Source: Squalus acanthias | Taxonomy: Eukaryota | NCBI GenBank assembly: GCA_030390025.1 | Contig: CM059430.1 | Span: 118,048,001-118,112,000 of the forward strand | Direction of reading: 5' to 3' | Length of the DNA stretch: 64,000 bases | Shown here: piece by piece, positions 13,609 to 50,581 of the stretch | Position numbering within the stretch: the stretch's first letter is position 1 | Layout: every line of letters starts with the position of its first letter | The notes under the pieces: generated by a model | What the model saw: only the letters and a program-made list of their open reading frames with translations | The model's database searches: none | Told to the model about the DNA's origin: nothing | Position numbers and translations under genes: made by a program

Positions 13609-13881
13609 CCTTTCTTCCTCACTTGTGTCAGGACCCAGATTATTTAAGGCATTTTCTACTCTAGCGAGTCGACCAGAGAGAGACAGCAACAGATTCACGA
13701 CCTTATCCAGATCGCCGATGAACATTCGGTACTTATCAAACTCATTTGGTTTGCAGACTTTGTTCACCATTCTTTCAGCCTCTTCCCCTAGGGCACAATT
13801 CGCACTGATGTCTTCCAGGAGGCTCTTCTGGGCTTCATGCAACACAGAGAGTTTTCTGCCAAGACTGCTGATCAATTGTTG
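13609..13881 (-). CDS. SHROOM4: SHROOM4-like ASD2 exon (273 nt, phase 0 to 0)
   Basis: Acceptor tttccatag and donor AGG|gtatgt. Encodes [37 protein letters not shown], the ASD2/SD2 core. Confidence 0.95.
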
Positions 13882-14153: not shown

Positions 14154-14334
14154 CTTCTTTTCTATCAACTTGTGGTCCTCTTCTTCTTCCTCCTCTTCCG
14201 AACACTCTTCAGCCATTTTGGGGAGGTCCTTCATCTTGTTCAACAGCTCGGCCTTGGCAGCGGATGTGCTATAGTAGGTGGAGCAAGACGTTGAGCTAAC
14301 CATTGATGTTGGGGAGGTGGCCTGTACAGTACCC
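14154..14334 (-). CDS. SHROOM4: SHROOM4-like ASD2 exon (181 nt, phase 2 to 0), not in the ORF track on this strand
   Basis: Acceptor ttcttttgcag-like and donor AAG|gtaatg. Encodes CSTYYSTSAAKAELLNKMKDLPKMAEECSEEEEEEEDHKLIEKK. Confidence 0.92.
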
Positions 14335-18635: not shown

Positions 18636-21328
18636 TCAAAACAGGCTGTTGCTGGGAACTATAAAAATAGCTGCTAAAAGTAGTAAACAACATTTTGTTA
18701 GGATCCACAACCCTTCTTGGAAAGAGGAATTTAGATCCCCCAGTACTATAAACCAATCTGAAGGTAGAAAAACCTTCTGCTGGGTTATACAGAACAATAT
18801 CCCTAAAAATATTGGTTCCTGCCGGATTGTAGCTCGATTTTCGTGCAATTGACCATAAATTCTAATCTTTGGACTGTATCATACAGCTGTGCTGGCAGAT
18901 CCCAAGCATGGGGCTCTGAGGAGTCAGTTGTCCAGGTAAGGATATTCATGGAGATGCTGCATCCTGAGATATGCCTGGAGTGTGGACAGGTACTTTGGGG
19001 AAATCCTAGGTGCTGAGAAGAGGTTGAAAGGGAGTATCCTATACTGATAACTTTACCTTGAAGCTGCATCTGAGGACCTCCCGGTCAGGTTGTTATATGG
19101 AAGTCTCCATCATTTAGGTCTATGATCGAAAGTGCAAAGCCAAGCTCATTTTGAGATAACTTTTATGATTTATGGCTTTGAAGGCCTCCCATGCTTGCTG
19201 AGGGAGATACTTACACTTTGGTTTAATTAACAGAGGGAGTATAATTCAAAGGTTAGCTGGTGCCAACCAACAATAGAAATGCGTCAGCAATAGTCTTCTT
19301 AACAGTGTCAGGAACTCTCTGAGCTGCACCTAACCGAGAGTCTATTACTAGACTGATAATTACCTCCTTGGAAGTATTGGATGTAATCTGCCCTTGATTC
19401 AGATGGAACGCGATGCTAATGATTTTTAGGTGCAGTTGGTGCACGGTTTTCTCTGGAGTGATGCAATTTTAGTAGAGATGAACTCTTGGTAATGAGGAGT
19501 GTAAAAGGTTCCTGGGCACTGGTCGATGCCATTTTCCAATGCTGCCGAGTCTCTGGTACTATGCTGGTGTTTACTTGCCATCAATCAGTGCAAAATGTGT
19601 GTGTTTAGTAACATCCAAGTGTAGATGGATTTCTTAAGATTTGATGTGCTGGTCTGTTATGTTCTGAATAATATGGGAAACAGTGCCGCCATTCCTTATA
19701 GGTGCGCTTAATGAACCCAAGACAAATTTAGTAAGTTGTGTTTAGGTACAAATATTTTATATGATAATGAGCATCAGTGATCTTGAATGGACTTTTGCAC
19801 TTTGATGGTATTTTGGATTAAAACCCAAATGAACTTTGCTTGTTCCAAATTGTGACTTGAATTTTATCTTGACAAGGTTAGGCAGGAGCACCTCAAAGGA
19901 GGGGGGGGACAAAAGCTCACACTTAAGCTTAGCCACCTGGCCAATTATATTCCATTTGGGCAAGGTAGGTGCTCTGCTACTGCATCTGCAGAGAGTGGAA
20001 AATCAGGCCAGTGACCCCCCTAACCCATTCTTGTGCACCTCCTGCCAATTGGTTTCTGAATGGATGTGACAGGAACAGGACCCTAATCCTATTCATCCTG
20101 CCAAAGAAGCTGCGTAGCTTGGGAACTTTTTTAAAAAAGGGATCAAATTAAATGGCAAAGGAGGAGGAGAGGAGAAAAGAACTGCTCAGTAAAGATCAGA
20201 TAGGGCAGGAGAGTAGTGAACACGTGGAGAGAGAAGTAGTAAGACCCACCACTACCGTGGATGAGCTACTTTACTTTTTGACTACAGTTAGTTGCCAAGT
20301 GGGGATCAACACCCCTGCGCAGAGCACTTCCATCGCACTGAGCCCGATAAAAGTAACGAGTTTTTACATCAATCTGGATTACATATTTTTTTGTTCATTT
20401 TTAAAATATTTGCACTCCACAGGCTGCATTATAGTCAGCCTCAGTAGTGTAAATGCTCTTCAGATCTCATTGCTAACTGGAACAGTTGAACAATAATAAA
20501 AATAAAAATTGCAAATTGTGGAAATACAGATTTGAATCTATTTGCCAAGTAAAAGTGAATTGTAGTCATTCTGCAGCACAAAAGAAGGAGACTGGTAAGT
20601 GATGTTCTTTGAGAGGAAGGGTGGGGAGGGAAGGTTAATAAATGCTTCAGTGCTTCCAGGAAGCTAAAAGTTCCACTGGAAGCTGACTGCATCGCCATCT
20701 GTTCCAGTGTCCAAGTGCACCTGAACTTACAACATTGAGAAACATCCACATCTGTCCCTGAGTAACTATATCGTCCATTTAGATGTATGGAAGCACTTTT
20801 GTAGCATCTATAGTGCACATTTGGGGCTGGATTAAAGAGGCACCATGTGAAATATAACTGGTTAAATAAAATTCACATTGCAAAGCTGCCCATATTTCAG
20901 CTCTAAATTGGGCCATAAGTATGGCTGAGGTGGGAAATGGAAGTATGATCCTACCAATTTTACCAAGCCTCTTGCTGAGGTATGGTTTCACAGGTGCCAG
21001 CATTACTCTGGTACCTTGCCCAAGTGGCTATTTTTCCTGTGGATGCCCATTCTACCAAGGGAAGAGAATCACAGCCGAACCCAAACCTGTCCTCATCCAA
21101 CATCTAGAAGCACACACTTACTTTTCTGGCTCACTGGACACTAATCAGGAGTAGGAACTCGGCCTGATTTTTTCCTTTTGTAACCCAGGATCATGGAGGC
21201 CAATTGTTGTGCCGCAATTGCTGCCTAGAGTGAGATTAGCTAACTCAGCATAGACTGGGGATTGGACTTGGATCTTAACAACTTCAAATAACATTACATG
21301 GAATCTGTAAGATCAAGAGGAGACTTAC

Positions 21329-21847
21329 TTCTCCTGGTTAACATTCAGGCTCAGCTGTAGTGGATTCCGTTTCTTGCGCTCACGTGCCCGTGACAGTTCC
21401 TCTTTGCTTTCCGGAAAGATTCCACCCATCAAGTCCACAGCACTCTTCATCTTCGAGTTAGGATCCAGAATGTCTGCCAGAGACCGGTCTTTCCCTGCAA
21501 TGTCTCTCACCAGCTCCTCCGAAGTCAGCTCGATGGGAGTTCTGCTCTTCACATCTGAACAGCACCTCACAGTCTCAATCCCCTCACCAGGATCCTGAGA
21601 GGGGCTTTTGATGGTGTTTCTCTGTGGTTTGGTGACAGGTTTTATGTAAATCTCAGAATCTTCCCACCTCTCGTCCTGTCTGCTGATAATACTAAAGTAC
21701 GACTCCCCGCATCTCTGACAGCCCAGATCCACATCATTCTTTGTAGATGGCACGTTGCATGGGAGATAGTGTCGGTCTCCTTCAAAGGGCCAGTTTTTTC
21801 CACCTCTGGATGTCATCTCCCCCATTGGATCTATTAATTTTCGAGTT
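21329..21847 (-). CDS. SHROOM4: Shroom exon carrying the N-terminal ASD2 motif (519 nt, phase 2 to 2)
   Basis: Acceptor tgtttccttag and donor AA|gtaagt. Encodes SEELVRDIAGKDRSLADILDPNSKMKSAVDLMGGIFP. Confidence 0.85.
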
Positions 21848-22359
21848 CTAAGGAAACAGAAATTAATACTAGATGATGCTGCACACTAACGACCTCTGAA
21901 CTCGTGCTTTTCAACTAAGCTGCTGAGATGCAATTGAAAGATCAGTAGCACCAGACATATACGATAAAGCTCTGTGTAGGGGAGACCACGGAAATCACCA
22001 ATGGGACATCATCAGCCTCACAAAAGGAAGAGATTCATTGGCTGCTGGTTGGGACACATTCTATTTATGCACATTTAAAATTAGGATTTTGGAGCTCTTC
22101 AAAATTGTGCAATTCTGAGCCACACAAAAATGGAAGGTTCCAGGTTTGATCCATTATATGTATTGAATTAGTTAATCTAAGCTGGGCCAGTGTTAAGACA
22201 CTACAATTGGTCCCAATGCCCACAGGCTGTAGCAGGGGGTTGGGGCAAAAGAAACAGAAAAAAGTAGCTCGGATTCCTGCTCCTAATCGTGGTCTAGTAA
22301 CCATTGTTGGAAGATGTACGTCTGTGGACACTGAGTGAAACACAATTGAGCTCAGCAAT

Positions 22360-22772
22360 AATCATAGAATCATAGAATGATACAGCACAGAAGGAGGCCA
22401 TTTGGCCCATCGTGCCTGTGCCAGATCTTTGAAAGAGCTATCCAATTAGTCCCACTGCCCCGCACTTTCCCCATAGCCCTGCAGATTTTTCCCCTCAAGT
22501 ATTTATCCAATTCGCTTTTGCAAGTTATTATTGAATCTGATTCCACCACCCCCTTTCAGGTAGTTCATTCCAGATCATCATAACTTGCTGTGTAAATTTT
22601 TTTTCCTCATGTTGCCTCTGGTTCTTTTGTCAATAAACCTTAAATCTGTGACCTCTGGTTACCGACTCTTCTGCCACTGGAATCACTTTCTCCTTATTTA
22701 CTCTATCAAAACCCATCATGATTTTGAACACCTCTATTAAATCTCCCCTTAACCTTCTCTGCTCTAAGGAGA
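22360..22772 (-). mobile_element. CR1 LINE 3' end nested in a SINE
   Basis: (atcataga)n terminal repeat followed by cagcacagaaggaggccatttggccc. SINE sequence resumes on both sides. Confidence 0.8.
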
Positions 22773-23494
22773 GTTGAATCGCCTGCTAATACTCACTGTC
22801 TAGGCTCACACAACAAGGTACCACAGTGCCCATGGGTCGTACCCAGCATGAGCTAGCATCAGAAACTGGGTGGGTGGGCCGGGGGGGGGGGAGGAAAATC
22901 ACCTTAAAACATTTTATGATTTGTGTGTGTGTTACTCAAGCTCAGTGCTGAAGAATTACATATTTTTCTACTTTTAGGCACACAGTATCAGCATCACGCG
23001 CTCCCAAGTCAGCTACAGCACGAGTCAGATTCAGCTCCTTCTGCCCTAGCCCATCAATGGAAAATGGCAGTCACTCTAGTGGTCTGTCTTATGCCCTTTC
23101 AGGGAGCCAGATTCAGAATTGGACCGATAGTCCTGGGAACAAGTTTCTTGTCACTCTCAGCTATCAGGAGACTCAATGGGTAAAAGTATATTAGGGATTA
23201 CAAACCCTCAAAAATAATTACATTTCAATTTATATCAAACTCAGTAATCTACCAGAGAGAGATGATGAACTTTTTACTCTCCTCCTCAAAATGTTAAATC
23301 ATCAAAAACGCTGCTCCTGCATGAACACTCAACATTAAACTAGCCCTTGAAACATAGTTCCTTTATGTCTTGCAAGGTAGTACTCGATCATTGAGTTGCT
23401 TACCCAGATCTCATCTCTACTGGATTCAGACTGGTGTGTTCATGCAACATTGCTCAAAATATACCTTTAAAATCCTTTAAAGATATCTCAGAAC

Positions 23495-23730
23495 AAAAAG
23501 ACACAGGAACAGGAGTAGGCCATTCAGCCCCTCAAGCCTATTCCACTATTTAATTTAATCATGGTTGATCTGTACCTCAACTCCCATTACCCGCCTTTGA
23601 TTCATATCCCTCGATAGCCTTACCTAACAAAAATCTATCAATCACAGTCTTGAAAATTTCAATTGACCAAGCATCCACAGCTTTTTGGGGCAGAGAATTC
23701 CAGATTTTCACTACCCTGGGTGTGCAAAAG
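23495..23730 (-). mobile_element. CR1 LINE 3' tail fragment
   Basis: aggaacaggagtaggccattcagcccctc tail, similar to the copy at 24343. Confidence 0.75.
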
Positions 23731-24342
23731 TGCTTCTTTGTCCTCATTTACAAGTCACTCCACGGCCCCACCGCACCAGCCCCAGCCACCTTCTCTACCC
23801 CTACATTCCAGCTCACACCCTCCATTCTTTCATCTCTGGCCTACTGTGTTCAACCCACCCCCTTCACTCCCCACGGAATTCTCTTAGTCAATTTCCACAT
23901 TGCCATATTTGTCCCCCACCATCCAAAGCCTCATCAAAATCTCTCTCTTAAACTACACCATCTGTCACCTCTCTTAACTCTTCCTAACTCCTGTTTGGTG
24001 ACATTTATTCTCCCTCCCTGCACCCCTCCTTTTGTAAAGCCTCTTGGGGCACTAACTGGTGTGTCAATGGTGTGTGCAAATCATGGAGGTAACATTTTGT
24101 TGTAAACATAAAATGAAAAATAAGGTTTTCTACTTTGTGTTACCTCCAAATTCTCCCTCCCCCACCAAAGGTGCTGACCCCTGGGATACAGTTCCATGGG
24201 CATTGGCAACCTTCCATTACCATACCATGTCTATTCTGCATGTGTGAGCCTAGACAGTGCTGTTTGATTGTGGAGGATATCAGAACCGAGCTCAATTCTG
24301 TCCTCATCCTATAACCACACACACACCTGCAGCAGGAGTCAC

Positions 24343-25847
24343 AGGAACATAGGAACAGGAGTAGGCCATTTAGCCCCTCGAGCCTCTTCCACTATTCAAT
24401 GAGATCATGGCTGATCTGCGACCTAACCGCCTTTGCCCCATATCCCTTAATATCTTTGGTTAACAAAAATCTATCAATCTCAGATTTAAAATTAACAATT
24501 GATCTAGCATCAATTGCCGTTTGTGGAAGAGTGTTCCAAACTTCTACCACCCTGTGTGTAGAAGTGTTTCCTAATTTCACTCCTGAAAGATCTGGCTCTA
24601 ATTTTTAGACTATGCTCCCTCGTCCTAGACTCCCCAACCAGCGGAAATAGTTTCTCTCTATCTACCCTATCTGTTCCCCTTAATATCTTGAAAACTTCGA
24701 TCAAATCACCCCTTAACCTTCTAAATTACAACCCTAATTTGTGTAATCTCTCCTCGTAATTTAACCCTTGGAGTCCAGGTATCATTCTGGTAAACCTATG
24801 CTGCACTCCCTCCAAGGCCAATATATCCTTCCTAAGGTGTGGTGCCCAGAACTGAACACAGTACTCCAGGTGTGGTCTAACCAGGGCTTTGTATAGCTAC
24901 AGCATAACTTCTACCCACTTGTATTCTAGTCCTCTAGATATAAAGGCCAGCATTCCATTAGCCTTTTTAATTATTTTCTGTACCTGTTCATGACATTTTA
25001 ATGATCTATGTACCTGGACCCCCAAGTCTCTTTGGACCTCCACTGTTTTTAGCTTTTCACCATTTAGAAAGTACCCTGTTTTATCCTTTTTAGGTCCAAA
25101 GTGGATGACCTCACATTTGCCTACATTGAAATCTATTTGCCACAGTTTTGCCTATTCACTTAATCTATCAATATCCCTTTGTAATTTTATGCTTTTATCT
25201 ACACTGCCTACTATCTTTGTGTCATCGGCAAATTTGGATATGTGGTTTTCTATCCCATCATCCAAGTCGTTAATAAATACTGTGAATAGTTGAGGCCCCA
25301 ACACAGATCCCTGTGGGACACCACTAGTCACAACCTGCCAATTAGAGTACCTGCCTATTATCCCTACTCTGTCTCCTGCTGCTCAGCCAATTTCCTAATC
25401 AATAATTTGCCTTCAATTCCATGGGCTTCAACTTTGGTTAACAGTCTCTTATGAGGGACTTTTATCAAATGCCTTCTGCAGGTCCATATAAATAACATCC
25501 ATAGACATTCCACTGTCCACTACTTTAGTAACCTCTTCAAAAAATTCAATCAGGTTCATCTGGCATGACCTACCTGTTACAAATCCATACTGGCAATCTC
25601 TGATCAGCTGAAAATATTCAAGGTGTTCAGTCACCCTGTCCTTAATTATAGACTCTAGTAATTTCCCGACAACAGATGTTAGGCTAACTGGTCTATAATT
25701 CCCTAGTTTCCCTCTCTCGCCATTCTTAAATAGCGGACATGCGCTATTTTCCAATCTAAAGGAACAATTCCTGAATCGAGAGAACTTTGGAAGATTACAG
25801 TTAGGGCATCTGCAATGTGCTCACCTACTTCCTTTAAAATGTTGGGC
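24343..25847 (-). mobile_element. 5'-truncated CR1 LINE (RT region to 3' tail)
   Basis: Motifs NYRPVSLTSVVGKLLESII, DVIYMDLQKAFDK and IEVFKILRG. 6-bp TSD agtcac (24337-24342, 25848-25853) splits a SINE. Confidence 0.9.
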
Positions 25848-28486
25848 AGTCACTGGATAATGCTCAAGAGAAAGAAACCTGGCTGATTTTAGTGCCTAAA
25901 ACAAAACACAAGCTCACTGGTAATATGCTCTTGTACTTCTGTAGTATCCAAACGCAAAGGAAAAGAGCAGCCACACCAATGCTTGGTGTAGTTTGTTTAT
26001 TTCAGCAATTTATTGTAATTTTTTCCTATGCTACTTGCTTTCTTCAGTGAGAGGCTGCAGGACTCTTCTTGGATTCTGCCAATGCCGCTCTGTAGCTCTA
26101 TCTTCAAACTTGCCCAAGTATCTCCCAGGATAACTCTTCTTCAGACTTTCCTTCCCAAAAAGGTAACAGCCCTGTTTCCACTCCCCACAAAGCAAGATTC
26201 AGACCCAAGTCTCTACCTGGTGGAACTGCCGGTATCAAACGGAGTACTAGGGATATGTGATGCAGCAAGCTGAGTATATGTTTTAGTGTTGACACAAGAG
26301 AGAAAGTGAAGAGCAATGTAGACACAAAGGGGCAAAGAACGAAGTAGATTAATCCAGCTGAGAATACTGGGTCTGTGGGCCATGTTCCTACACTTTGATC
26401 CTTTCCATTGTGTAGCTGATCATCGACAGCGACATTATTAAAAATTTTCAATGCTGCATAAAGCTCGACTCATTAATAACAACTTTCACCTGTTACTCTA
26501 TCAAACAGAAATAATTTTGGTTAAAGGGCTTGCCGTGGAAATGTGTCTAAATGCTTATTCTCTGTATCTAACCAGAGGAGAGTACCATGATACAATCACA
26601 AAGTGGGCATTTTAATGGAAGCTTAGACATGTCACCCCATCTGTCTGAAATCTTCACATTCAAGAGCAACGCTCTTTAAACTATGTGCTATTACCACATT
26701 GCCTGGGCCACTGCCCACATTACCTTGGGTGTCACATGTTGGGCAGCCATTTTAAAAGACAACATGCCAGCTACATAATTGCTAAAATGTTGCCCTATTT
26801 CACAGCATCATTTAAAAACAATATAATTTGGGTCTCTTGACAGCTCGGAATGAGTCAATGCACATGTGCTGTGGCACTAAGCCAAACAGACCATAAAAGT
26901 CCCCGAGTTAGCTAATCTCTGCCAGGGAAGCAGTTGGAATGCTACAGTTGGCCTGAGCATCCATGGGAGCAGGAAAAACAAGAGGAAAATAACCAGACTG
27001 AGTTTCACTCCTAATTGCTGATTCCTGCTAGAAAGTGCCTATGTTGCCAGCATTAAGTTCAGCAATTATGTCACCTATGCTCGAATAGCCTGCCAACACT
27101 CCACATAAGGCTCACAGATGAATAATGGCCATTTGCGTGAGGTGCCACAGTGCAGTTGGCACCTGTGAAACCATACCCCAACAGCAGTCAGTGCCTTCAG
27201 GAGAGGCGAGAAAACTTCTAAAAAAGGGAAATCCTCAGTAAATTCATTAAAAGGAGGCTCCAAACTGGTTACAAAATGCCTTAAATCAGAACACAACAAC
27301 CCTTAAATGTGCCTCATATTCTGCATGTTCTTCAAAACAGTGCTTTAATTTTACAAGCAATGACTGGGAATAGAACTGACATTACAAACACACACAATGG
27401 GACTTCTCCTCACAAACAGAGGTCAGAGGTTATGAGTTAGACTTTAAAAGCTGCTGTCTTTGGAACACTGAGTCCTTCCCACATTCCACTGATTGTCCAG
27501 GTCCCAGCCAATTGGCAACAAGTAGTAAAAATTGCCATGTCCTGATGAGCAGCATTTTCTACTCAACTAGGAAGCATGTTTTTAAAGTAGTACATGCTCT
27601 TTCTTTCCAGCCATTTTCTCCCCACCTGAATCTGGCTCTTGGTGGGGTATGGTTAAATAGGTACTGGCACATTGTCCATGTGTGTGGATAGGCTATTTGA
27701 CTGTAGAGGGTACCACAGCCAAACTTGGTCCTGTTTTTTACCAGGCATCTATAAATGAATACTTTCCAGCAAGAATCACAATCCGGAGTGGGTATCTGGC
27801 CGATTTTTCCCCTTTCTAGCCTGGGGCACTGAGATCAATTGTGGCACTGCAACTGTTGTCCCAAATGACTGAGTCCTAAACTAATTGAGAAAACCAGAAT
27901 TGAGAAAGGTCACACCCTCTGAATTTCACTGGAAATGAAAGTCAAAGTTTGGATAACTATTCAGGTTCTGCAACAGGAAAGTACCTTAGGTCCATTAACA
28001 TAAATATATACTCAACTTTCAGTAGGTAGCCGTATCTAAAAAAAAAGAGTTGTTAGAGAAACCAGTGGAGCTGCAAGGCAATTAACTTATGGGTTCTTAG
28101 AGCAAGTGAAAAAAAATGTTTTTCCTTTTAGAGGACAACACGGTAGTAAATGGAATCAGAATTGTGCCACGACCTTCATGCAGCAAGTTCCCAATTTCAG
28201 CCGTGCCACTGAACAGAGATGGACAGTGAAGGGTAAGGCTGGTCATAGGAAAGGGGATAATTACTCTATATATCAGAGTGCAAATCACTCCAGGCTCAGA
28301 GATCAGTTTAGAATTCGCAGAGGTCAGACAGTAAATATCCTGCCCACAAATACTCGGCTTATCCTCCTGTCAGGGAAATGTTGCAGGGTCCAAATGTAAT
28401 GTCATATTCTAATTTGGGGGTAAAACTTCCACTGCAGTTACAAACTGACTCTCAGTAATGTTCAACATTAGTTTTTATATAATTAC

Positions 28487-30292
28487 CTTGGTGCGACATC
28501 ACTCTCCAGGGGCGTTACCAATTTCATCACCGGTCTCTGTGATTTAGAATTATACAATGAAGAGATCATGTGTTCACCTGAAACAGGAACTACAGAGGAG
28601 GATACTAAGCATCTTGGATCAATGAAATTGGATGCTGGATACCTGTATTCAAGGCCCATTAAGTACTCTGCACACAGTTGCGATGGATGAGAATATCGTG
28701 TTGCAGTGTCCGTGGCAGACCCAGCACTTGGAGACAGATCTGAATAAAGCCACGTTTCTCTATCAGAGATCTGTTCTGACCTTTTCCGACCCACTGATGT
28801 GGGCTGTGAGATCAACGCAGGATCTAATTCATACGGAGTGCCTCTCTGTGACCAATATTTATCCAAACCCAGCAATTCATCTCGAGACCGGTTCCAGGAC
28901 TGGTACTTTTCCAAATCTGGCAATTCGTGTAGAGACAATTTCCGAAACTGGTACTTGTGTAAATCTTGCAATTCATGTTGAGACAGCTGCCGGGTCAGGT
29001 ACTTGTCCACATCTAGCAATTCGTGTTGAGACAGTTTCCGGGACTGGTACTTTTCCAAATCTGGCAATTCTTTTTGAGGCGGTTTCCGGGACTGGTACTC
29101 TTCCAAATCCGGCAATTCGTGTTGAGACAGTTTCCAGGACTGGTACTTTTCCAAATCTGGCAATTCTTTTTGAGGCGGTTTCCGGGACTGGTACTCTTCC
29201 AAATCCGGCAATTCGCGTTGGGACAGTTTCCGGGACTGGTACTTTTCCAAATCCGCCAATTCGTGTTGGGGCAGTTTCCGGGACTGGTACTTTTCCAAAT
29301 CTGGCAATTCGTGCTGGGACAGTTTCCGGGACTGGTACTTTTCCAAATCTGGCAATTCGCGTTGGGACAGTTTCCGGGACTGGTACTTTTCCAAATCCGC
29401 CAATTCGTGCTGGGACAGTTTCCGGGACTGGTACTTTTCCAAATCTGGCAATTCGTGTTGGGACAGTTTCCGGGACTGGTACTTTTCCAAATCTGCCAAT
29501 TCGTGTTGAGACAGTTTCCGGGACTGGTACTTTTCCAAATCCGCCAATTCGTGTTGGGACAGTTTCTGGGACTGGTACTCTTCCAAATCTAGCAATTCAT
29601 GTTGAGACAGTTTCCGGGACTGGTACTTTTCCAAATCTAGCAAGTCGTGTTGGGTCAGTTTCCGGGACTGGTACTCTTCCAAATCTAGCAAGTTGTGTTG
29701 GGTCAGTTTCCAGGACTGGTACTCTTCCAAATCTAGCAATTCTTGTTGAGACAGTTTTTGGGACTGATACTTTTCCAAATCCACCAATTCGTGTTGGGAG
29801 AGTTTCCAGGACTGGTATTTTTCTAAATCTGGCAATTCATGTTGAGACCGTTTCCGGGACTGGTATTTTTCTAAATCTGCTAATTCATGTTGAGACAGTT
29901 TCTGCAACCTATACTTCTCCCAATCTGGTGGTGGTGGTCTTTGCGGTGGAGGCCCTTTCTTCTTTTTGTTGGTAGATAAATCTTCATGTCTATTCATCTC
30001 TGAATTGTGTGGAGCAACCTTCCCTTCTTCAAACTTGTTCGATACATCCAGTGATCCACAACTAACATGGCGTGTGGAACATGTGCAGGTAACCCCTTCT
30101 CTCTGTGGGTACTGCGGGGAATACTCAGAATAATTCACTGGCAGTGCAGTAGCTATGCTGGGCCTTTCCCAAGCAGACGTTTCCAGTCTTGGTGTATTCA
30201 CCAGCTTGTCCCACTTGTCCTTGAGGCTTTCTTTTGACTTCATTTCGGAAAGTGCTTCTTGCACATTGCTTACACTCAGTGCCTTCATCTCT
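28487..30292 (-). CDS. SHROOM4: SHROOM4-like exon containing a coding tandem repeat (1806 nt, phase 2 to 2)
   Basis: Lies in the 607-aa ORF. Acceptor tgtctttcag, donor AG|gtaatt. Contains KKKGPPPQRPPPPDWEKYRL followed by the 16-aa repeat array. Confidence 0.85.
28816..29919 (-). repeat. Coding minisatellite, 48-bp unit, about 23 copies (consensus EKYQSRKLSQHELPDL)
   Basis: The + strand unit gggactggtacttttccaaatctggcaattcgtgttgggacagtttcc repeats without indels. 23 x 48 = 1104 nt; terminal copies are degenerate. Confidence 0.97.
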
Positions 30293-31369
30293 CTGAAAGA
30301 CACCAAACATTAATTTTATTTAATCAATTAATTTCTTAGGCGTTACATACAATACGTACTTCATGAAGCTATATTATATGCTTTGATTAAATTGAACTTG
30401 CATGAGTGCACAGTAGTTTTTTGACATGGCCCTGCCCATGTGGGGAGAAATTTCTAATTCAAGGTTGTAACAATTTGTTTTGTCTTGGTCCCTAAGGTTT
30501 GGTTGGGCAGATGATGTGCAGAGGAGGGGGAAAAAGTCCTGTCTGCTTTCACTAATGATCCTGTTGGTTGGAGTTGCTGTCTTTGTCTGGTTTTGGAGGT
30601 AGTTTTTTTTTTTTTAAAAAAGCTCATTTACTCTCCTGCACTAGTTGGCTCCTGGAAGATGAATTAGGAAATGGAGTGAGTGGAGCCCCAGATTACCTGG
30701 TATTTCCTAAATTCCAGGAGATATTTCAACCACGTGGTTGGTAATGGGATTGTGGATAGGTCTGCTCTGCAGCACAGTGGGGCAATGAATTTTTTCAGTT
30801 AGCATCAAGAGTTGTGCTAATCAGTGTGCTCCAGGGATCCAATGCTCGCTAATGGATTGACCAAACACGTCAGAGTCTGCAGGGATAGTTCACATCGGAG
30901 TCTGCCAGGATAGCTAGGGCCATCATTGACTTTGTGGCAGCCTTTCAGAATGGTTGAATGCAAGGGCATGATCAAGACTGTAGAAAATTGGTGAAGGGGC
31001 TGTGGTTAGAAGGGCAGTCATCTGAGAGGGAGGTAGAATGTGTAAGGACATTTCGTTTTTATAATAGTAAACAGCAAAGATATATACAACATGCAGGTGT
31101 CTGTTGTATATTGGCACTTTACGGCTGCACCAAATCACAGGAGGATGCTTATCCTGAAATTGTTGAGACAGAAGTATTTTAATTTTTCTTCTGTGTGTGT
31201 GCTCTATTTAATACATTCCTGCTAGAATTTTTTTTTAATTTAAAAAGTATTTGCAGGATATTTTGCATAGCTTTCCTTGTAGTCACCCACTAAATCTGTG
31301 TTGGTCAGTCAAGCTGCAAAGCACAACATAAAAATGAATTTAAACTCTAATCAAAGGTTTAGTATATAT

Positions 31370-32406: not shown

Positions 32407-33545
32407 CAACTTGTATTTATATAGCACCTTTAACATAGTAAGACGTCCCAAGGCGCTTCACAGGAGTATTATGCGACAAAAAATTTGACACCGAGCCACA
32501 TAAGGAGAAATTAGGGCAGGTGACCAAAAGCTTGGTCAAAGAGGTAGGTTTTAAGAAGCGTCTTAAAGGAGAAAAGAGAGGTAGTGAGGCGGAGAGGTTT
32601 ACGGAGGGAATTCCAGAGCTTAGGGCCTAGGCAACAGAAGGCACGGCCACCAATGGTTGAGCGATTATAATCAGGGATGCTCAAGAGGGCAGAATTAGAA
32701 GAGCGAAGATATGTCGGGGGGTTGTGGGGCTGGAGAAGATTACAGAGGTAGGGAGGGGCGAGGCCATGGAGGGATTTGAAAACAAGAATGAGAATTTTGA
32801 AATCGAGGCGAGCACAGGGGCGATGGGTGAACAGGACTTGGTGCAAGTTAGGACACAGGCAGCCGAGTTTTAGATGACCTCAAGTTTACGTAGGGTAGAA
32901 CGTGGGAGGCCAGCCAGGGGTGCGTTGGAATAGTCAAGTCTAGAGGTAACAAAGGCATGGATGAGGGTTTCAGCAGTGGATGAGCTGAGGCAAGGGTGGA
33001 GACGGGCGATGTTACGGAGGTGGAAATAGGCGGTCTTAGTTATGCCGTGGATATGTGGTCGGAAGCTCATTTCAGGGTCAAATATGACACCAAGGTTGCG
33101 AACAGTGTGGTTTAGCCTCAGACAGATGTTAGGGAGAGGGATGGAGTCAGTGGCTAGGGAACAGAGTTTGTGGCGGGGATCGAAAACAATTGCTTCAGTC
33201 TTCCCAATATTCAATTGGAGAAAATTTCTGCTCATCCAGAACTGGATGTCAGACAACCAGTCTGACAATTTAGAGACCGTGGAGGGGTCGAGAGAAGTGG
33301 TGGTGAGGTAGAGCTGGGTGTCAGTGTACATGTGGAAACTGACGCTGTGTTTTCGGATGGTGTCGCCAAGGGGCAGCATGTAGATGAGAAATAGGAGGGG
33401 GACAGGATAGATCCTTGGGGGACACCAGAGGTAACGATGCAGGAGCGGGAAGAGAAGCCATTGCAGGTGATTCTCTGGCTACGATTAGATAGATAAGAAT
33501 GGAACCAGGCGAGTGCAGTCCCACCTAGCTGGACGACAGGGGAAA
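32407..33545 (-). mobile_element. L2-clade LINE 3' portion (RT C-terminal half and tail)
   Basis: Motifs HMYTDTQLYL, WMSRNFLQLNIGKTEAIVF, LIHAFVTSRLDYSN and FKTLLKTYLF; L2-type tail. Confidence 0.88.
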
Positions 33546-35276: not shown

Positions 35277-35341
35277 CTTTCTGTTGCAGGAAACTTCCTG
35301 TTTATTATTTCGGTCTGATTCAGTTTTTCCACCGGATATCC
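35277..35341 (-). CDS. SHROOM4: SHROOM4-like small exon (65 nt, phase 0 to 2), not in the ORF track
   Basis: Acceptor tcttctttgcag and donor AG|gtagga. Encodes GYPVEKLNQTEIINRKFPATER and supplies exactly the phase change needed between the flanking exons. Confidence 0.85.
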
Positions 35342-37029: not shown

Positions 37030-38680
37030 GGGCTGGTTAAGCCCACCCAGCGCGTTTGCCGGTCCAATTAGAGGAAGTGGGTCTCGTGACGTCATTTGAT
37101 GACGCATCATCAGCCGGTTTCCTTAAAGGGACCATGGCCAACTTTATTTTGACATTTGTGCTGTCAGTGTTCTACAGCATTGAGGTGCTGCAAACACTGA
37201 CAATGACTGCACAGAGGTGCAGGGCTGCACCCATGTTCTCCCAGGACTCCCTCCATATGCTTATGGAGGGAGTCAGAGCACACAGGGAGGTCCTCTATGC
37301 TTCCGATGGGCAGAAGACACCTCCCCAGGAGACCAACGCAGCCTGGTTGCACATTGCAGAGGAGGTCATGAGCAGGGACGTCGTCAGGAGGACCTGGGTG
37401 CAGTGCCGCAAACCTTTCAATGATCTCATTAGATCACGAAACATTAGGGCAAAGCCACACTCACCTTCATCCTGTAGTGCCTCTCATCACATCCCCATCA
37501 CTCTGCCTTCCCTACCCTGCTCCTGCACATCCTTACTCGCACCAACTTACCTTGCACCTCCACCCATCCCTCTCTCTATCTATATTATCACATCCCCATT
37601 TCACTAGCCACCCCTCACACTCACCCTCATTCTAGTGCAATCATACCAACTAACACCACACAAGGGTAGCCCACTTGGGTGTTTTATCCAGTGATCATGT
37701 AAAGTTTCTGTGAATGTGCTGTCAAACATTGAAACCTTTATTTTCAACACTTTGCTTTCTTGGACAGATTTGTGTGTACCTTTGGAAGTGTCTTAGTGAG
37801 TTGCAGTGAATGGTGAGACATAACGGTACCACCCAGAATGGTGATGAGTGTGAAAGGAATGGCTTGGACATTGTAGGGATGCTTTATGTTGTTGGTGTGG
37901 GGTGGTGCCAACCTGGCGCATCATGTGGCAGCCAGGGTGTACAGCGTCAAGTGAAGGAAATCTGGCCACGGTGAGGCCATCCCTGGCAGCAATGTGCTCA
38001 GGTACTGATGCCCTCTGTCCTGTGCAGCATCAGGTGATTGCGGAGAAGGTTGGTGTTGTTCTCGGTGCTGCTGGTGTGCCTGGTGCTGCTGGTGTTGGGG
38101 CTGATCGTGGTCAGATTCTGAGGACCAAGGTGAGACAGTATAAAGGGCACCCATGTTGATGGAATAGATGGCAGGTGAAGTAGAGATGACAGAATCATTC
38201 TGTCAATGGTGAGAGAGTTCTTCCAAAGAGGTGAGAGTGGATGGAGAATGGAAAGCCTGCAGAATCTGTGCTGGAAATGGACTGAGAAACAGCTTGTGGC
38301 TGAGGAAAGTGAAGATCTGTCAGGTGGGAGCTTTTACTGTACATTTGAAGCGGTCAAGGAATCAGCTAGAGCAATGGCCATTGAACTCCTGCCTCAGGTT
38401 GATAGCTGTGGTCCCTGAACAGCGTGGTTCCTGTGGCCATGAAGTTAAAGTGAAAAGGTAAGTTAAAAAAGCCTGTTAATGATCTGTCAACAAGGCAATA
38501 ATGAGCTTAATTGGGTCACCCGCCACTGCCCGTCGGGTCTGCTCGGCGCTGACAGACCCAACATTGGGAAAGGCGCATGGCAGCGGGTTGACAGTGGGGT
38601 CCCGACCCGCTGTCAAAAAACACACTTTCTCACCCGACCTGCCACTGATCGTGCCCGCTGACCCCCGCAAAATTCCGGCC
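37030..38680. mobile_element. Internally deleted PIF/Harbinger transposon with a Myb/SANT ORF remnant
   Basis: + strand RAAPMFSQDSLHMLMEGV...WLHIAEEV...RTWVQCRKPFNDL is a Myb/SANT trihelix pattern. A convergent Q/H-rich ORF start lies on the - strand. Right end is caaaattccggcc; the left TIR was not found. Confidence 0.7.
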
Positions 38681-39603: not shown

Positions 39604-39676
39604 ATGTAGATAGCTCAGTCGGTAGAGCATCAGTCTGTTAATCTGAGGGTCCAGGGTTCATGTCCCTGTTCGGGCG
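39604..39676 (+). pseudogene. tRNA-Lys(TTT)-derived pseudogene with anticodon changed to GTT
   Basis: GATAGCTCAGTCGGTAGAGCATCAGtCTgTTAATCTGAGGGTCCAGGGTTCAtGTCCCTGTTCGGGCG matches vertebrate tRNA-Lys(UUU). The first 5 acceptor-stem nt are missing, pair 31:39 is mismatched, and A58 is T. Confidence 0.85.
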
Positions 39677-41834: not shown

Positions 41835-44289
41835 CTCAGATAAAGAGGGCTGCAACTGGTTGGATCTTGTAGAGGGATGAGGTTCTTCCAGGTGACTGTT
41901 ATCTGGATGGAAATACTGATAATGTAGTGTTGGACCTGGGTCAGAGTGTTGCACCTGCTGTACGTGAGAGACGCGATGCTCATTCAAAGTGCTTGATTTA
42001 TTTGGTTTGAGTGGCTCTAAATTTTCACATTTACATTCCTGCTCACGTAGCTCCTCTCCTTGTCTGTGGTGTATTGCTTGCTCCAAATCTCTAGATGAAT
42101 ATTGCCCAGAGTGTTGACTGACTCGACCTGTAGAGTGCTGGAAGATTTCTTCTGCAGATTTCCTCAGATGATCACTTGGAAGGGCATGTAACTTACTGCA
42201 AAAGCTCTGGCCTTTAGATTTTCCTATGGTACTTGATTTACTCTGAAGTCCTACAAAATTGCAAGAATCAGACCCTGAGAAACATTTACTGGTCTCTTCA
42301 AAGAATTTTCTCCTCTCTGCAAAGGACACCAGTGGGGAGGTATCTGGTTCCTGTAGCTCTGCTGTTGCACAAGGTTTCATCTCATCGGACTCACCTTCTT
42401 TTATCACCTTACTTTGAGATTCCAGCTTATCCTCTGGTGTCCATCTCCATTGGCCAGTTCCACAGGCTTCCTGAGCAGTCTTCTGCTCATCAAAGTTCTG
42501 GGATAATGAACCAGTTCCTGTTTTGCATCTGTCTGGTGAAACATGAGAGTTGCCAGCCACTGGATATAAATTCATACTTCCTGGTTTATGATCCTTTGCC
42601 ATGCAGTCCAGGGTTTTATTGGGGTCTGTGGTCTGTGTTTTTGTGCCTGTAGTTTCTTCTGCTGTGCCAATGACATCAGGCTCACCAGTAATGCAAGTAT
42701 AGAAACTGGACGGCTTCTCTCTTGAGTCACCCATTTCTTCTGAAGCTTCTTCCATTTGGAGCAGCACAGCTGCACTCTTGTTCTTCTGCAGCTGAGCTTT
42801 CTTTATTTGTATTTCATTACGTAAATTTGTGGCAAAGCGGTCACTTTTGCGCCGCATTCTGGCTACTCTAGAACCTGATACCCGAGCATTTCTGCCAGTT
42901 TCATTCTTGGCTTCTTCCAAATCTGTCTCGTCTTCCAAAGTCTGGCCGCTTGAGGACGTGCTTCCAATCTCACTCATTTGAACTGGTGGTATTGAAGGCA
43001 CCTGTATGCTTTGCTGTTGGGCTGTAATTTCAACAGATGCTCTTCTGCAACTTGTACTACTACTAGGCTCACCTTTGCAAGGGGAAGAATGGAGCTGACT
43101 ATCTAAACAGTGACCACAGGTGGCTACTTCAATTTCTTCTTGTTTCCCCTTCGGTATAGATTCAGAACTCAAGGAGTTCTCTTTCATCTGCTTTTCAAAT
43201 GAAGAATCAATTTTGTTTAAAGCTTTATGAGGATGTCCTATGTTGGACTGATATCCCTGCTGAGGTATTGACACACTGTTGGCCCATTCATGACTTTCCT
43301 GATCATACTGTAATCCCAAACCATTTTTGCCACAGTCTGAAATCGTTAGTGAATGCAAATGGGCTGACAACAACTTCTCAGGTGCACTGTGCCTATGCAA
43401 ATTCAAAGGCAATCTTTCATTCTGCTCCACTCGATTCAGGCTCAGGTATTGACTGGCAACAAACGATGGATCAATCAAATTGCATAAATCTAACTGCCCC
43501 ATCAAATATCGACTGGATTTTCTTGGGAATGTTGTATTTTCATGTGAAATAATATCTTCACTGTGCCTGTGAGAATGACAAGAATGCCTTGGTTGTTGTC
43601 TTAACAAGCAGCAACACTCTATTGGGCAATGGCTGGATGCTAGGTTACTAGAGTGCAGGGCAGTGCCTGTAGAGCATTTAGGAATACAGGTATAATATTC
43701 TCCCTCAGAATCTTTGTCTCTCGTAGATAACAAGGTTTCAGAAGTCCACCTTCCGGGACGAAGCAACAGGTTTGTCGCTGTAAATGCCTCAGAATTAGTC
43801 ACGCACAGAGATGCAGAGCGAGCTTTAGTTGCCACAAAACTTTCCCTGCGAACAGGTAGTGGGGGAGGGGCCGATTTGGTAGAACTTGCAGCACTTGCTT
43901 CACGTACATGGGATGGCAGCATGTTGTCACTTTCAGATGACCCCTTCCCACAGTGTGAACAAAGCTGCTCTTCAGCTGGCCGTTCCCCACCTTCACTTCC
44001 ACTTTGAAGGTACTGGGCGTCTCCATACCTGGTTGGCAGCCATGGTCCCAAGCCATGTAGTATACTGTCCATGGAGGCAGACTCATCAGTCTTCACCGAC
44101 GAAGACAGAGTGTAGTCAGAGGCGTTAGAGCTTGCAGAAAATGAGCTGTAGGCAGAGTCTCTTTTGTTAGGATACGTGCTTTGGTCACAGATTTGGCTGG
44201 GTTGGTCAAGGCTGTCCATACTTCCAAATGAGCTCCTCTGATCTGAGCTACGATGGAGAGCTAGTTGATCCCACTGCATAGGAAAGTCA
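41835..44289 (-). CDS. SHROOM4: SHROOM4-like large central exon (2455 nt, phase 2 to 0)
   Basis: Lies in the 850-aa ORF. Acceptor gtcttccag, donor GAG|gtagga. Contains SSFGSMDSLDQ, RDSAYSSFSASSNASD, PPLPVRRES, RFATNLRNEIQIKKAQLQK and WRWTPE. No ASD1 signature was recognised, consistent with SHROOM4. Confidence 0.9.
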
Positions 44290-46444: not shown

Positions 46445-46576
46445 CTGGAGTCATATCCTGAGTGCCACGACAGACTGAGGGACCCTGATGAATAGTGCAT
46501 CCTAGTGGCCTCAGGCTGTGCCTCTGATAACTTGGCCAGGTGCCATGTGTACGGTCTTATCCCTGGACCATTCCTC
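46445..46576 (-). CDS. SHROOM4: SHROOM4-like coding exon following the PDZ exons (132 nt, phase 2 to 2)
   Basis: Acceptor ttcttctttcag and donor AG|gtgagt. Encodes RRNGPGIRPYTWHLAKLSEAQPEATRMHYSSGSLSLSWHSGYDS, which matches the Shroom post-PDZ RPHSWH..K..E / SLSWHSG motifs. Confidence 0.9.
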
Positions 46577-48854
46577 CTGAAAGAAGAAAACACACAAGTG
46601 TGAGCTATAGATGCAAGGTAATGAAACACTTAATTTTGTCTGGTAACTGGTCACTTATCTCATTGCTGTTTGTAGGCCTTATCTGCGTACAAAACAGCAA
46701 CTACACCTCAAAAGTACTTAAGTTATCTGTGAAGCACTTTGGGATGTCCTGAAGACATGAAAGGTATTATACAAATGTAATTCATTTTGTTTTTCTTTAC
46801 AAGAAGAGGAGCCAACTAAGGGCAGTATGCGACAAATGCAAAACAGGCGGGTATTTTGATAGGACTGATGCACCTTAAAGCTACATTCAAAGTTTATTTC
46901 AATTTGGGTGCTATTTGGTCCATTGCAATTTCCACAGCTTCCCCAAGTTTCCCTCTTCTTTCTTGAAAGTGGCGATTCTCACTGTGGTACAGTTCCACAG
47001 GCACTGGCCGCACTCCAGTACCTCGCCCAGATGCCATTCTTCACCGGCGAGCGTCTAGCGTGAATGTTCGTGGGCTTTTCTAGCATGGGAAACAACTCCC
47101 GTCACTAGTGGTCACCATCAACAATGGTCACTAGACAGTGGTCAGAAGAGGGAACCCAGCTGATTTTTTTCCCTCCCTCACCCATGGAGACTAAAGTTAA
47201 TTGTAGGACACAATTGTCACCCTGGTGAGATCAGCTAACTCTTCAACCCGATCTGCGTGGCTCAGTACCGCATCCAGCACTGCATTTACCCATTGAGTCA
47301 TCAATGGGGCTCCTGTTCTTACTGTTTCATATCTTTTGTCCTTCAGTCCAATTTCTCCTCCTCTCAAAACAAAGAAAATCCCTCTCTGCACTAACCGTGC
47401 CTGTGCCAGCTAAAAGGGGCACCGTCTTTGAATGAAAAAGTAATTTGTCAAACCCTTTTGTATTTGGAAGCACAGAAGGCAGTGTTGGAAACCAATAGAA
47501 ATGCATAACTGTCCCACTCACATATGGCACCACCCTGAGAAAAATGGTGCACAAATCTTCTCTCCCCCCAACAAAAAAAAGCTTACTACATATTTTATTC
47601 ATGAAGATGATAACCTTTTAACAAGTCCGGACTGTTTCTACAGCAAAGCACTCAAGCTCTGTATTGCTCAAAGAAACACCAACTCGCATCTCAGTCAGTC
47701 ACCAAGTCTCCTCAATTGGCAAGAATTAGTACACCAGATCCATTTCCCTTCAGAGCAGTTTGTTAGCCTTGTTAGATACAGTTCAGACGGAAGAGTCCAG
47801 GCTGACAGCTGCAGGTGGTAGCAAGGCCAACACCTGCCCCATAACAGAAGTTCAGCAATTAGAAGCAGGTCCTGTGCCAGTTGTCAAGTCAAAAGACTTC
47901 AATAAATAATTCAGCATGCTTCCAGAAAATATGCAAAGGTTCGACAATGCAAAATAAAGAGAGACTAGCACAATGTAGAAGCTGTGCCACCTAGCGCTCA
48001 AACTTTCCGACACGATTCCACGGGGTCGTTGTTTACAGGATCACAGAACAGGGTTCTGAGTTGCCAGTCACAAAACCTTGCACTTTCCACCATTAGTAGA
48101 CCCATTTAAAGAGGATGTATCGCCATCAGATCCACGATTAAAAAAGGGAGTTCTGGCCACATAGCTTCAGAAGAACCACAACAAATGAAGGACAATGGAG
48201 CTTGAATTACTGAGTCTGACTGTGTAAGGGAGATACAGTCAGTAACACAGATGCTGGCTGCAAGGAGTTACTGAGCTGGATAGTGCACAGGCCATAAAAG
48301 GTGTCAATCATTTACAGTGAGAATCACTCATCTTTAAAAATGTCACATTTTGATGTACATTACTCTGAAAAATAAACAAACACTTTGATATGTTTTAAAG
48401 AGTTTGCAATCAGTCTCACTTTTTTTTTGATTATAATTCTCACTGGTAACATTTCCTCAAAGTTCAGAGCTCGTAACATGAGGGAGCTGAATTAACATCA
48501 GTACAGGTGCATTCAGTATAACATGGTGCTGGGTGGAAGAAGTTACTGAGCCTGATAGTGCAAGGGAGCTGGATTGTGCATAGAGAATTTCTAGTTACAC
48601 AGGACAGTCAGGAGCCAGTCTCCCCAAGCACACCGTTGAACTCTGCAAGTAATAATCAGTTCTCTGCTTTTACTTCACAGAAACTACTCCCTTAGTCTGC
48701 TGGAAGATTCACAAAACCTCATTTTCATGGGTCTACAATCCAGTCGGTTCACAGAGTCTCAGCTCCTTCACACTACTGGAATGCACCCCATTGAGGGAGA
48801 GCAGGATGTTTGCCTCTGCCTACACTCCCCAAGTGGAAGCACAACTAGAGTCAA

Positions 48855-50494
48855 CACAGAAGCCAGTCTTCAGCCAATTCGATTCACTCCACGTGATATC
48901 AAGAAAAGGCTGAATACAGCAAAGGCTGTGGGCCCCGACAACATCCCGGCTGACATGCTGAAGACTTGTGCTCCAGAACTAGCCACGCCTCCAGCCAAGC
49001 TGTTCCAGTACAGCTACAACACTGGCATCTATCCAACAATGTGGAAAACTGCCCAGGTATGTCCTGTCCACAAAAAGCAGGACAAATCCAATCTGGCCAA
49101 TTACCGCCCCATCAGTCTACTCTCAATCATCAGCAAAGTGTCGTTGTCGTCGACAGTGCTATCAAGCAGTACTTACTCATCAATAACCGGCATCTCTGCA
49201 TCATGATCAATAACCTGCACACTGATGCCCAGTTTGGGTTTCCGCCAGCACCACTCGGCTCCCGACCTCATTACAGCCTTGGTCCAAACATGGACAGAGG
49301 ATCTAAATTCCAGAGGTGAGCTGAGAGTGACTGCCCTTGACATCAAGGCAGTATTTGACCAAGTGTGGCATCAAGCAGCCCTAGTAAAACTGAAGTCAAT
49401 GGGAATCGGGGGGAAAACTCTCCACTGGCTGGAGTCATACCTAGCACAAACGAAGATGGTTGTGGTGGTTGGAGGTCAATCATCACAGCCCCAGGACATC
49501 GCTGCAGGAGTTCCTCAGGGCAGTGTCCTAGGCCCAACCATCTTCAGCTGCTTCATCAATGACCTTCCCTCCATCACAAGGTCACAAGTAGGGATGTTCG
49601 CTGATGACTGCACAGTGTTCAGTGCCATTCGCAACTCCTGAGATAATGAAGCACTCCATGCCCGCATGCAGCTAGACCTGGACGACATTCAGGCTTGGGT
49701 TGATAAGTGGCAGGTAACATTTGCGCCACAGAAGTGCCAGGCAATGACTATCTCCAACAAGCGAGCGTCTAACCATCGCCCCTTGACATTCAACGGCATT
49801 ACCATCGCCGAATCCCCCACCATCAATATCCTGGGGGGGTCACCATTGACCAGAAACTTAACTGGACCAGCCACATAAATACTGTGGCACCAAGAGCAGG
49901 TCAGAGGCTAGGTATTCTGCGGCAATTGTCTCACTTTCCTGACTCCCCAAAGCCTTTCCACCATCTACAAGGCACAAGTAAGGAGTGTGATGGAATACTC
50001 TCCACTTGCCTGGATGAGTGCAGCTCCAACAACGCTCAAGAAGCTCGACACCATCCATGACAAAGCAGCCCGCTTGATTGGCACCCCATCCACCACCTTA
50101 AACATTCACTCCCTCCACCACCGGCATACCGTGGCTACAGTGTGTACCATCTACAAGATGCATTGCAGCAACTCGCCAAGGCTTCTTCGGCAGCACCTCC
50201 CAAACCCGCGACCTCTACCACTTAGAAGGACAAGGGCAGCAGGCCCATGGGAACACCACAACCTCCAAGTCACACACTATCCTGACTTGGAAGTATATCG
50301 CCGTTCCTTCATCGTCTCTGGGTCAAAATCCTGGAACTCCCTCCCTAACAGCACTGTGGGAGTACCTTCACCACACGGACTGCAGCGGTTCAAGGCGGCG
50401 GCTCACCTCCACCTTCTCAAAGGCAACTAGGGATGGGCAACAAATGCTGGCCTTGCCAGCGACGCCCACATCCCATGAACGAATAAAAGAAAAA
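48855..50494 (+). mobile_element. 5'-truncated non-LTR retrotransposon (RT domain to A-rich tail), disrupted
   Basis: Motifs [42 protein letters not shown] and MFADD, broken by stops and frameshifts. Clade not assigned. Confidence 0.9.
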
Positions 50495-50581
50495 GTAACA
50501 CGGGGCTGGGTGAGTGTGGTTACTGAGACCGATAGTATGAGAGAGCTGAAGTAACATTAGTAGATATACAGAAGTAACACA

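Follow-up and report, generated by a model that had tools for sequence, protein, structure and literature searches.

The SHROOM4 gene of Squalus acanthias carries, within a spliced exon, a long in-frame array of 16-residue units, and its presence in the 64,000-nucleotide stretch of DNA analysed here (the window) is confirmed. On the evidence of sequence comparison, the repeated unit is an amplified copy of a single ancestral Shroom4 motif and no new invention. The array may be understood as a shark and ray amplification of that motif working as a flexible, many-site tract for basophilic kinases (PKA/ROCK), an interpretation to which we attach an even chance.

A coding tandem array in the window

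Tandem Repeats Finder located a 48-bp array at positions 28872-29902 (21.5 copies, 86% matches, 0% indels), whose score of 1432 is more than ten times that of the next-best array within the 64-kb window. In the minus-strand frame it comprises, from 29925 to 28822, 23 units of 16 aa with the window consensus DLEKYQSRKLSQHELP and with neither indels nor stops. Both analyses bear out the approximately 23 uninterrupted in-frame units that a sequence-only reading of this DNA had described; the interval named there, 28816-29919, covers the same 1104 bases offset by two codons. Unit 1 directly adjoins the basic and proline-rich motif KKKKGPPPQRPPPP, which is the place of the single ancestral motif. 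Stops are present in four of the five other reading frames of the array, and the one open antisense frame was rejected as coding (pS 0.10, below the pN of 0.16). An assembly artefact was rejected, the array being present in 22 proteins from other sharks and rays. Five DNA-type sequencing runs contain 0.77-0.79 of the words of the stretch, and one of them may be the source sample.

Table 1. Exons, motif and array of the SHROOM4 gene in the window
Feature	Position	Strand	Remarks
Upstream exon, downstream of the PDZ exons	46445..46576	-	Gene model
Large central exon	41835..44289	-	ASD1 below threshold (15.7 bits; cut-off 25)
65-nt exon preceding the array exon	35277..35341	-	Gene model
Array-bearing exon, 1806 nt, AG/GT, phase 2-2	28487..30292	-	3' joint in RNA-type contigs
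Basic and proline-rich motif KKKKGPPPQRPPPP	29926..29967	-	Conserved in Shroom4 and Shroom2
Array, 23 in-frame 48-bp units, consensus DLEKYQSRKLSQHELP	28822..29925	-	Units 1, 22 and 23 diverged; units 16 and 18 identical
Unit 21, with RKLSL	28918..28965	-	Position conserved near array end
Phase-symmetric exon, start of ASD2	21329..21847	-	Joined to array exon in RNA-type contigs
ASD2-region exon	14154..14334	-	Gene model
ASD2 exon	13609..13881	-	PF08687, E 1.5e-39
Last coding exon, ASD2 end and stop codon	11636..11914	-	Gene model

Gene model and assignment to SHROOM4

Eight exons between 46576 and 11636 (Table 1) join as one open frame of 1902 aa with a single terminal stop; all have an AG acceptor and all but the last a GT donor. 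The phases of the array exon fit its neighbours, as had been read from the letters, the downstream joint being seen in RNA-type contigs and the upstream joint (35277 to 30292) resting on homologous proteins. ASD2 (PF08687) was matched on two exons (E 3e-9 and 1.5e-39), and the array lies, as claimed earlier, between the proline-rich motif and this domain. A full ASD1 is absent, the match in the window falling below the cut-off, whereas the shark and ray Shroom2 matches do have PF08688. No PDZ exon was found in the window, and PDZ is present in 11 of 18 full-length relatives. In an unrooted ASD2 tree of 37 rows (Shroom4, Shroom2 and Shroom3, without Shroom1 or an invertebrate outgroup), the window fell within eight elasmobranch rows (99/97), beside that of a sevengill shark, and a 100/100 branch split the elasmobranch and 13 bony Shroom4 rows from 16 Shroom2/3 rows. 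The gene, previously termed SHROOM4-like, can thus be assigned to SHROOM4 by the tree and by homologous proteins.

Several further elements were noted in the window. The ORF at 37041-37607 (+), inside a SHROOM4 intron, encodes a Myb/SANT-like DNA-binding domain (PF13873, E 4e-9) and is presumably of Harbinger-type transposon origin. Reverse-transcriptase-like ORF pieces at 32870-33478 (-), where the RVT_1 match is weak, and at 48640-50554 (+), assigned by reading the ORF translations, are likely LINE remnants. A tRNA-like element at 39610-39669 (+) (Rfam RF00005, 46.5 bits) is possibly a SINE head. Furthermore, the first ASD2 helix (13840-13870, minus strand) reads RKLSVLHE, near the RKLSLHE of the array unit, probably by chance.

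Transcription and splicing of the array exon

The joint from 28487 to 21847 (GT..AG, minus strand) is present in contigs of all three RNA-type runs and absent from one DNA-type run. The RNA-type runs stem from two studies, their RNA label being an automatic guess, and their contigs were aligned to 21200-28871, ending beside the array. These contigs leave unique intron stretches without coverage, and the three extend 50-55 letters beyond 28871 and, we infer, enter the array. Contig depth across 22200-26060 is very high in all four runs, reflecting high-copy intron repeats. Eight RNA-type runs, labelled by the same automatic guess, contain 0.49-0.62 of the sampled words of 28300-30500; among the distinct 31-mers of this interval, 0.36 derive from the exon outside the array and 0.80 from the whole exon. 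Since 0.49-0.62 exceeds the non-array exon share of 0.36, array sequence is present in these eight runs.

Skipping of the array was considered and rejected, as none of 37 full-length cluster members skips it, with two exceptions among 24 proteins examined separately. These are a sawfish model with neither motif nor array, which jumps from the early array exon to the next exon, and a manta isoform that exits the exon inside the array (21 of 30 units). The tail of the array exon appears, from sequence comparison, to be alternatively spliced with the array retained. Donor-like sites at approximately 28644 and 28782 (-), after the array, match shorter-isoform junctions in relatives. The exon at 21329-21847 is missing from one catshark isoform and apparently also from one bamboo shark isoform.

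Distribution of the array in sharks and rays

The exon search returned 22 proteins, all from sharks or rays and mostly named Shroom4 or Shroom4-like. Counting with a unit profile gave 16-29 units in most proteins, with lower counts for the whale shark (10) and a draft bamboo shark model (8); the sawfish model had none. A further 44 cluster members included 37 full-length proteins, all with 16-30 units, and seven short Logan fragments with none; no full-length model has a unit count between 1 and 8. The sequence-only reading had suggested that the array may be length-polymorphic; its length varies between species, and within species the only differences are between assemblies, in two cases (21 versus 24 and 8 versus 19), which may be due to assembly collapse. 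As the array is carried by both sharks and rays, it predates their split. The sequence-only reading had proposed a lineage-specific module, and this holds, the lineage being sharks plus rays (which that reading had missed) and not one species. No chimaera Shroom4 was present among the matches listed (the best 120 of 1778 and 120 of 421).

Twenty proteins, 13 from sharks and 7 from rays, were compared in detail. In both groups the first and last units can be told by their position, and RKL[ST]L occurs at least once per protein in 20 of 20. Similarity among middle units is higher within species (0.70) than between species (0.62), and rays have a consensus unit of their own, DVERYPPRKLSQHELP: all seven carry Pro-Pro at positions 6-7 and Val at position 2, position 4 also being changed. 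The homogenised middle units, together with the separate ray consensus, point to an old array under concerted evolution. In six ray proteins approximately 100 residues of degenerate, irregularly spaced units follow unit 1 and precede the regular array. The distance from the motif to the start of ASD2 is 383-739 aa in the 18 measurable of the 20 elasmobranch proteins, versus 177-282 aa in the nine measurable of 12 bony-vertebrate proteins, in agreement with the altered spacing foreseen from the sequence.

A single ancestral motif in bony vertebrates

The bony-vertebrate set consisted of 12 Shroom4 proteins (three sturgeon or paddlefish, five amphibian, three turtle and one bird, with no mammal or teleost), three further Shroom4-named partial proteins without the region having been left out. 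All 12 contain a single 16-mer after RPxPP, e.g. NWEKYRTRRASHHHLY. Positions 8-9 of the unit are Arg-Arg and position 11 is Ser in 12/12, position 15 being Leu in 10/12, such that the Arg-Arg-x-Ser is in register with the Arg-Lys-Leu-Ser of the unit. Under a profile built from elasmobranch units only, this 16-mer ranks first to fourth of 986-1847 windows, its score exceeding zero in only the three turtle copies; in all five Shroom2 controls the same place ranks 57th to 1296th. From these comparisons the array unit is taken to be an amplified copy of the single Shroom4 motif. The sequence-only reading had missed this origin, as well as the basophilic kinase consensus that the motif carries.

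Approximately 45-60 residues after the motif, all 12 bony-vertebrate proteins carry RxRSxSL, with a following Pro in 11. RxRSxSLP, which we take to be a consensus of 14-3-3 and Akt type, was found in none of the 20 elasmobranch proteins; two skates have RYRSRSLG, without the Pro, inside the array. Human SHROOM4 presumably has a Gln/Glu tract at about the place of the array. A 14-3-3 site has been reported in SHROOM3 (PMC10722951).

Candidate phosphorylation sites within the units

Basic-basic-x-Ser/Thr sites are 6.7-fold denser in the arrays of the 20 proteins than elsewhere (3.24 versus 0.48 per 100 aa). Position 11 of the unit is Ser or Thr in 348 of 421 units, and K9, S11, Q12, H13, L15 and D1 are fixed in the middle-unit consensuses of all 20 species. 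The unit presumably resembles the ROCK site of MYPT1. A 14-3-3 mode I site has Pro two residues after the serine; the unit lacks it, position 13 being His in 20/20 species consensus units. ROCK prefers basic residues at -3, -2 and -1, and PKA preceding basic residues (PMC4477863). The searched supplement files of that kinase screen contain no Shroom4 peptides, two of the files matching Shroom2 only.

Counting against phosphorylation, 131 of the 421 units have Gln or Trp at position 8 in place of the -3 Arg. In the window, basic residues occupy both -3 and -2 of the Ser/Thr in 11 of 22 scored units, and unit 1, the counterpart of the ancestral site, reads QKLS, without the -3 Arg. This loss in the window is attributable to CpG decay of the CGG codon; of the CpG mutations that could change an amino acid of the window consensus, all three are observed. 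Additionally, the conservation of S11 is matched at D1, E14 and L15, and constraint therefore does not point to the serine alone. Comparison of 21 window units gave pS 0.27 and pN 0.12, the pairs being non-independent. This modest synonymous excess speaks in favour of the phosphorylation tract, with P 0.039 for units 1-21 under a stratified shuffle, but it is lost (P 0.14) for units 2-19, the end units being removed.

The absence of the -3 Arg from one third of the units makes a serious rival of the proposal that the array is a spacer, a minisatellite whose expansion within a disordered linker is tolerated and of which at most the end units or the added length matter. Selection would here keep an open frame and a soluble chain, and homogenisation would keep the units similar. 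Such a spacer, which we consider somewhat unlikely, is in keeping with the variable unit number (16-30), with tolerance of CpG decay at the -3 Arg codon, with the weakness of the synonymous excess in the middle units, with the poor conservation of the linker in bony vertebrates and with the lack of a confident fold (pLDDT 47). It is harder to reconcile with retention of the array in all 13 shark and seven ray proteins since the split, where no full-length protein has between 1 and 8 units, with the fixation of six consensus positions in 20/20 while rays replaced others, and with the fact that it was the linker's only conserved motif that was amplified.

In the favoured reading of the array as a tract for kinases, one duplication before the shark-ray split would have been followed by repeated unequal crossing-over, which would have homogenised the middle units and left the end units their identity. 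The product would be a mostly disordered chain of short helices, in which graded phosphorylation of the position-11 serines could carry the tract from nearly neutral to strongly negative; with 60 Lys/Arg and 70 Asp/Glu among the 352 residues of the window tract, its charge would change strongly once ten to twenty serines were phosphorylated. This shift may tune the hold of SHROOM4 on actomyosin or on partners of the proline-rich motif. Single units look dispensable, and it is the total number of sites that would matter. The kinases reading the tract would be basophilic, e.g. PKA, or ROCK recruited by SHROOM4. The Shroom-binding domain of ROCK1 was reported to pull down the SHROOM4 ASD2 (PMC10626209). 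ROCK is described as a 120-nm rod with a long coiled coil that places the kinase at its far end (PMC4905274), and tethered ROCK may thus not reach the array in cis.

Structure of the array and comparison with actin-binding and docking motifs

A single-sequence AlphaFold2 model of the array (400 aa) had a mean pLDDT of 46.9 and a pTM of 0.18, no residue reaching 70; over part of the array it showed, at low confidence, a short helix in each unit. The earlier description of the array as a repeat domain is unsupported, given that AlphaFold2 returned no confident fold. The predicted complex of the motif and three units with the protein's own ASD2 scored 0.01, which is evidence in neither direction.

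A search for outside homologues gave 92 matches among 1.84 billion representatives, of which only the skate Shroom4 fell below 1e-30. Nineteen of the other 91 were inspected and dismissed as unrelated repeats, and none of the 91 had three unit-like motifs; a Pfam scan of 15 of the weaker matches found no family in common. A Pfam Sir1 match was taken as chance, and so was a match over 22 residues with a bacterial enterotoxin chain (E 0.024). ESM Atlas gave no match at 0.9 for the array and none usable for the turtle motif. The 19 array-bearing proteins compared with Pfam matched 17 families at E up to 10, none of which was thymosin, WH2 or Xin, in a comparison where HMMER filters drop many weak matches; at the same E limit, solved structures yielded no chain of these kinds. 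Actin genes were encountered in ten giant-virus contigs and have no relation to the window.

These searches bear on the idea that each unit is a short amphipathic helix with a Lys-Leu anchor, and that the array grips actin as a multivalent stand-in for the weak Shroom4 ASD1. In the way it spaces Leu, Leu, Tyr and Lys-Leu, the unit seems to us to resemble beta-thymosin/WH2 peptides, and Xin repeats, which bind actin, share its 16-residue period. The sub-threshold ASD1 and the short helix predicted with low confidence per unit in part of the array are likewise consistent with an actin grip. Human SHROOM4 cut at 1140 was reported to keep partial actin co-localisation, which was lost on cutting at 684, placing actin association between these residues (PMC13499302). 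Nevertheless, we regard actin binding by the units as unlikely: thymosin, WH2 and Xin are missing from both sets of matches above, and rays put Pro-Pro between the helix and the anchor. Moreover, thymosin-type motifs have two basic residues after the anchor Leu, in place of which the unit has Ser-Gln.

Similarly improbable, in our estimation, is that ELxDLEKY forms a docking helix which binds a partner without phosphorylation, possibly the protein's own ASD2 in the manner of the SCRIB WRAAR helix, the array adding avidity. In favour of a docking helix, conservation is highest at D1, E14 and L15, and a short helical motif containing a ROCK site was reported to bind the ASD2 of SHROOM2 and SHROOM4 (PMC10626209). 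However, the same source gives SCRIB as the only human protein with that motif (PMC10626209), and the single copy of bony vertebrates conserves the Arg-Arg-x-Ser half and not the acidic half. Little credence is also given to a broader scenario, in which sharks and rays would have swapped a single-site 14-3-3-type switch for a 16-residue actin-gripping repeat with an off-switch serine in each unit, minisatellite expansion thereby creating a stepwise ROCK/PKA tension rheostat.

Relation to known systems and significance

The protein resembles vertebrate SHROOM4 (Shrm4, KIAA1202) in the PDZ of full-length relatives, the weak or absent ASD1 and the C-terminal ASD2, as well as in a basic and proline-rich motif followed by W-x-K/R-Y-x-x-basic-basic-x-Ser. 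It differs in that the 12 bony-vertebrate proteins carry the motif once, together with RxRSxSL, whereas elasmobranchs have approximately 16-30 copies and no RxRSxSLP. Tandem phospho-acceptor repeats are also found in Ki-67 and in the KSP repeats of neurofilaments, which like those of the RNA polymerase II CTD have been shown to be phosphorylated, mostly in a proline-directed manner. The CTD is itself such a tandem repeat (PMC12152636). The likeness to these three lies in a short kinase-site unit, present in many copies within a disordered tail and varying in number between species; there is no sequence relation, and the unit of the array is basophilic and its sites are predicted. Xin repeats share the 16-residue period and a cytoskeletal host protein, and beta-thymosin/WH2 the helix, the Lys-Leu spacing and such a host; the array gave neither a Pfam nor a solved-structure match to either kind.

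No description of the array was found among the open-access papers listed on SHROOM4 or on elasmobranch coding repeats; its sequence is already within public gene models, unannotated. There are precedents for phospho-acceptor motifs in repeats and for minisatellites in coding sequence, and what is new is the amplification, across sharks and rays, of a single conserved linker motif of a disease gene, SHROOM4 being a human neurodevelopmental disease gene.

The regulation of SHROOM4 and the action of its middle region on actin are poorly mapped, and the shark array highlights within that region a small conserved motif, Arg-Arg-x-Ser after a proline-rich stretch. It constitutes a natural 20-fold amplification of this motif, easy to assay for kinases and binding partners. 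Should the array be only a tolerated spacer, it would still be an undescribed shark and ray marker and a site of assembly collapse. It is, moreover, an old and clear example in which a coding minisatellite has multiplied a linear motif, the copies being retained throughout a vertebrate subclass and the neighbouring motif lost.
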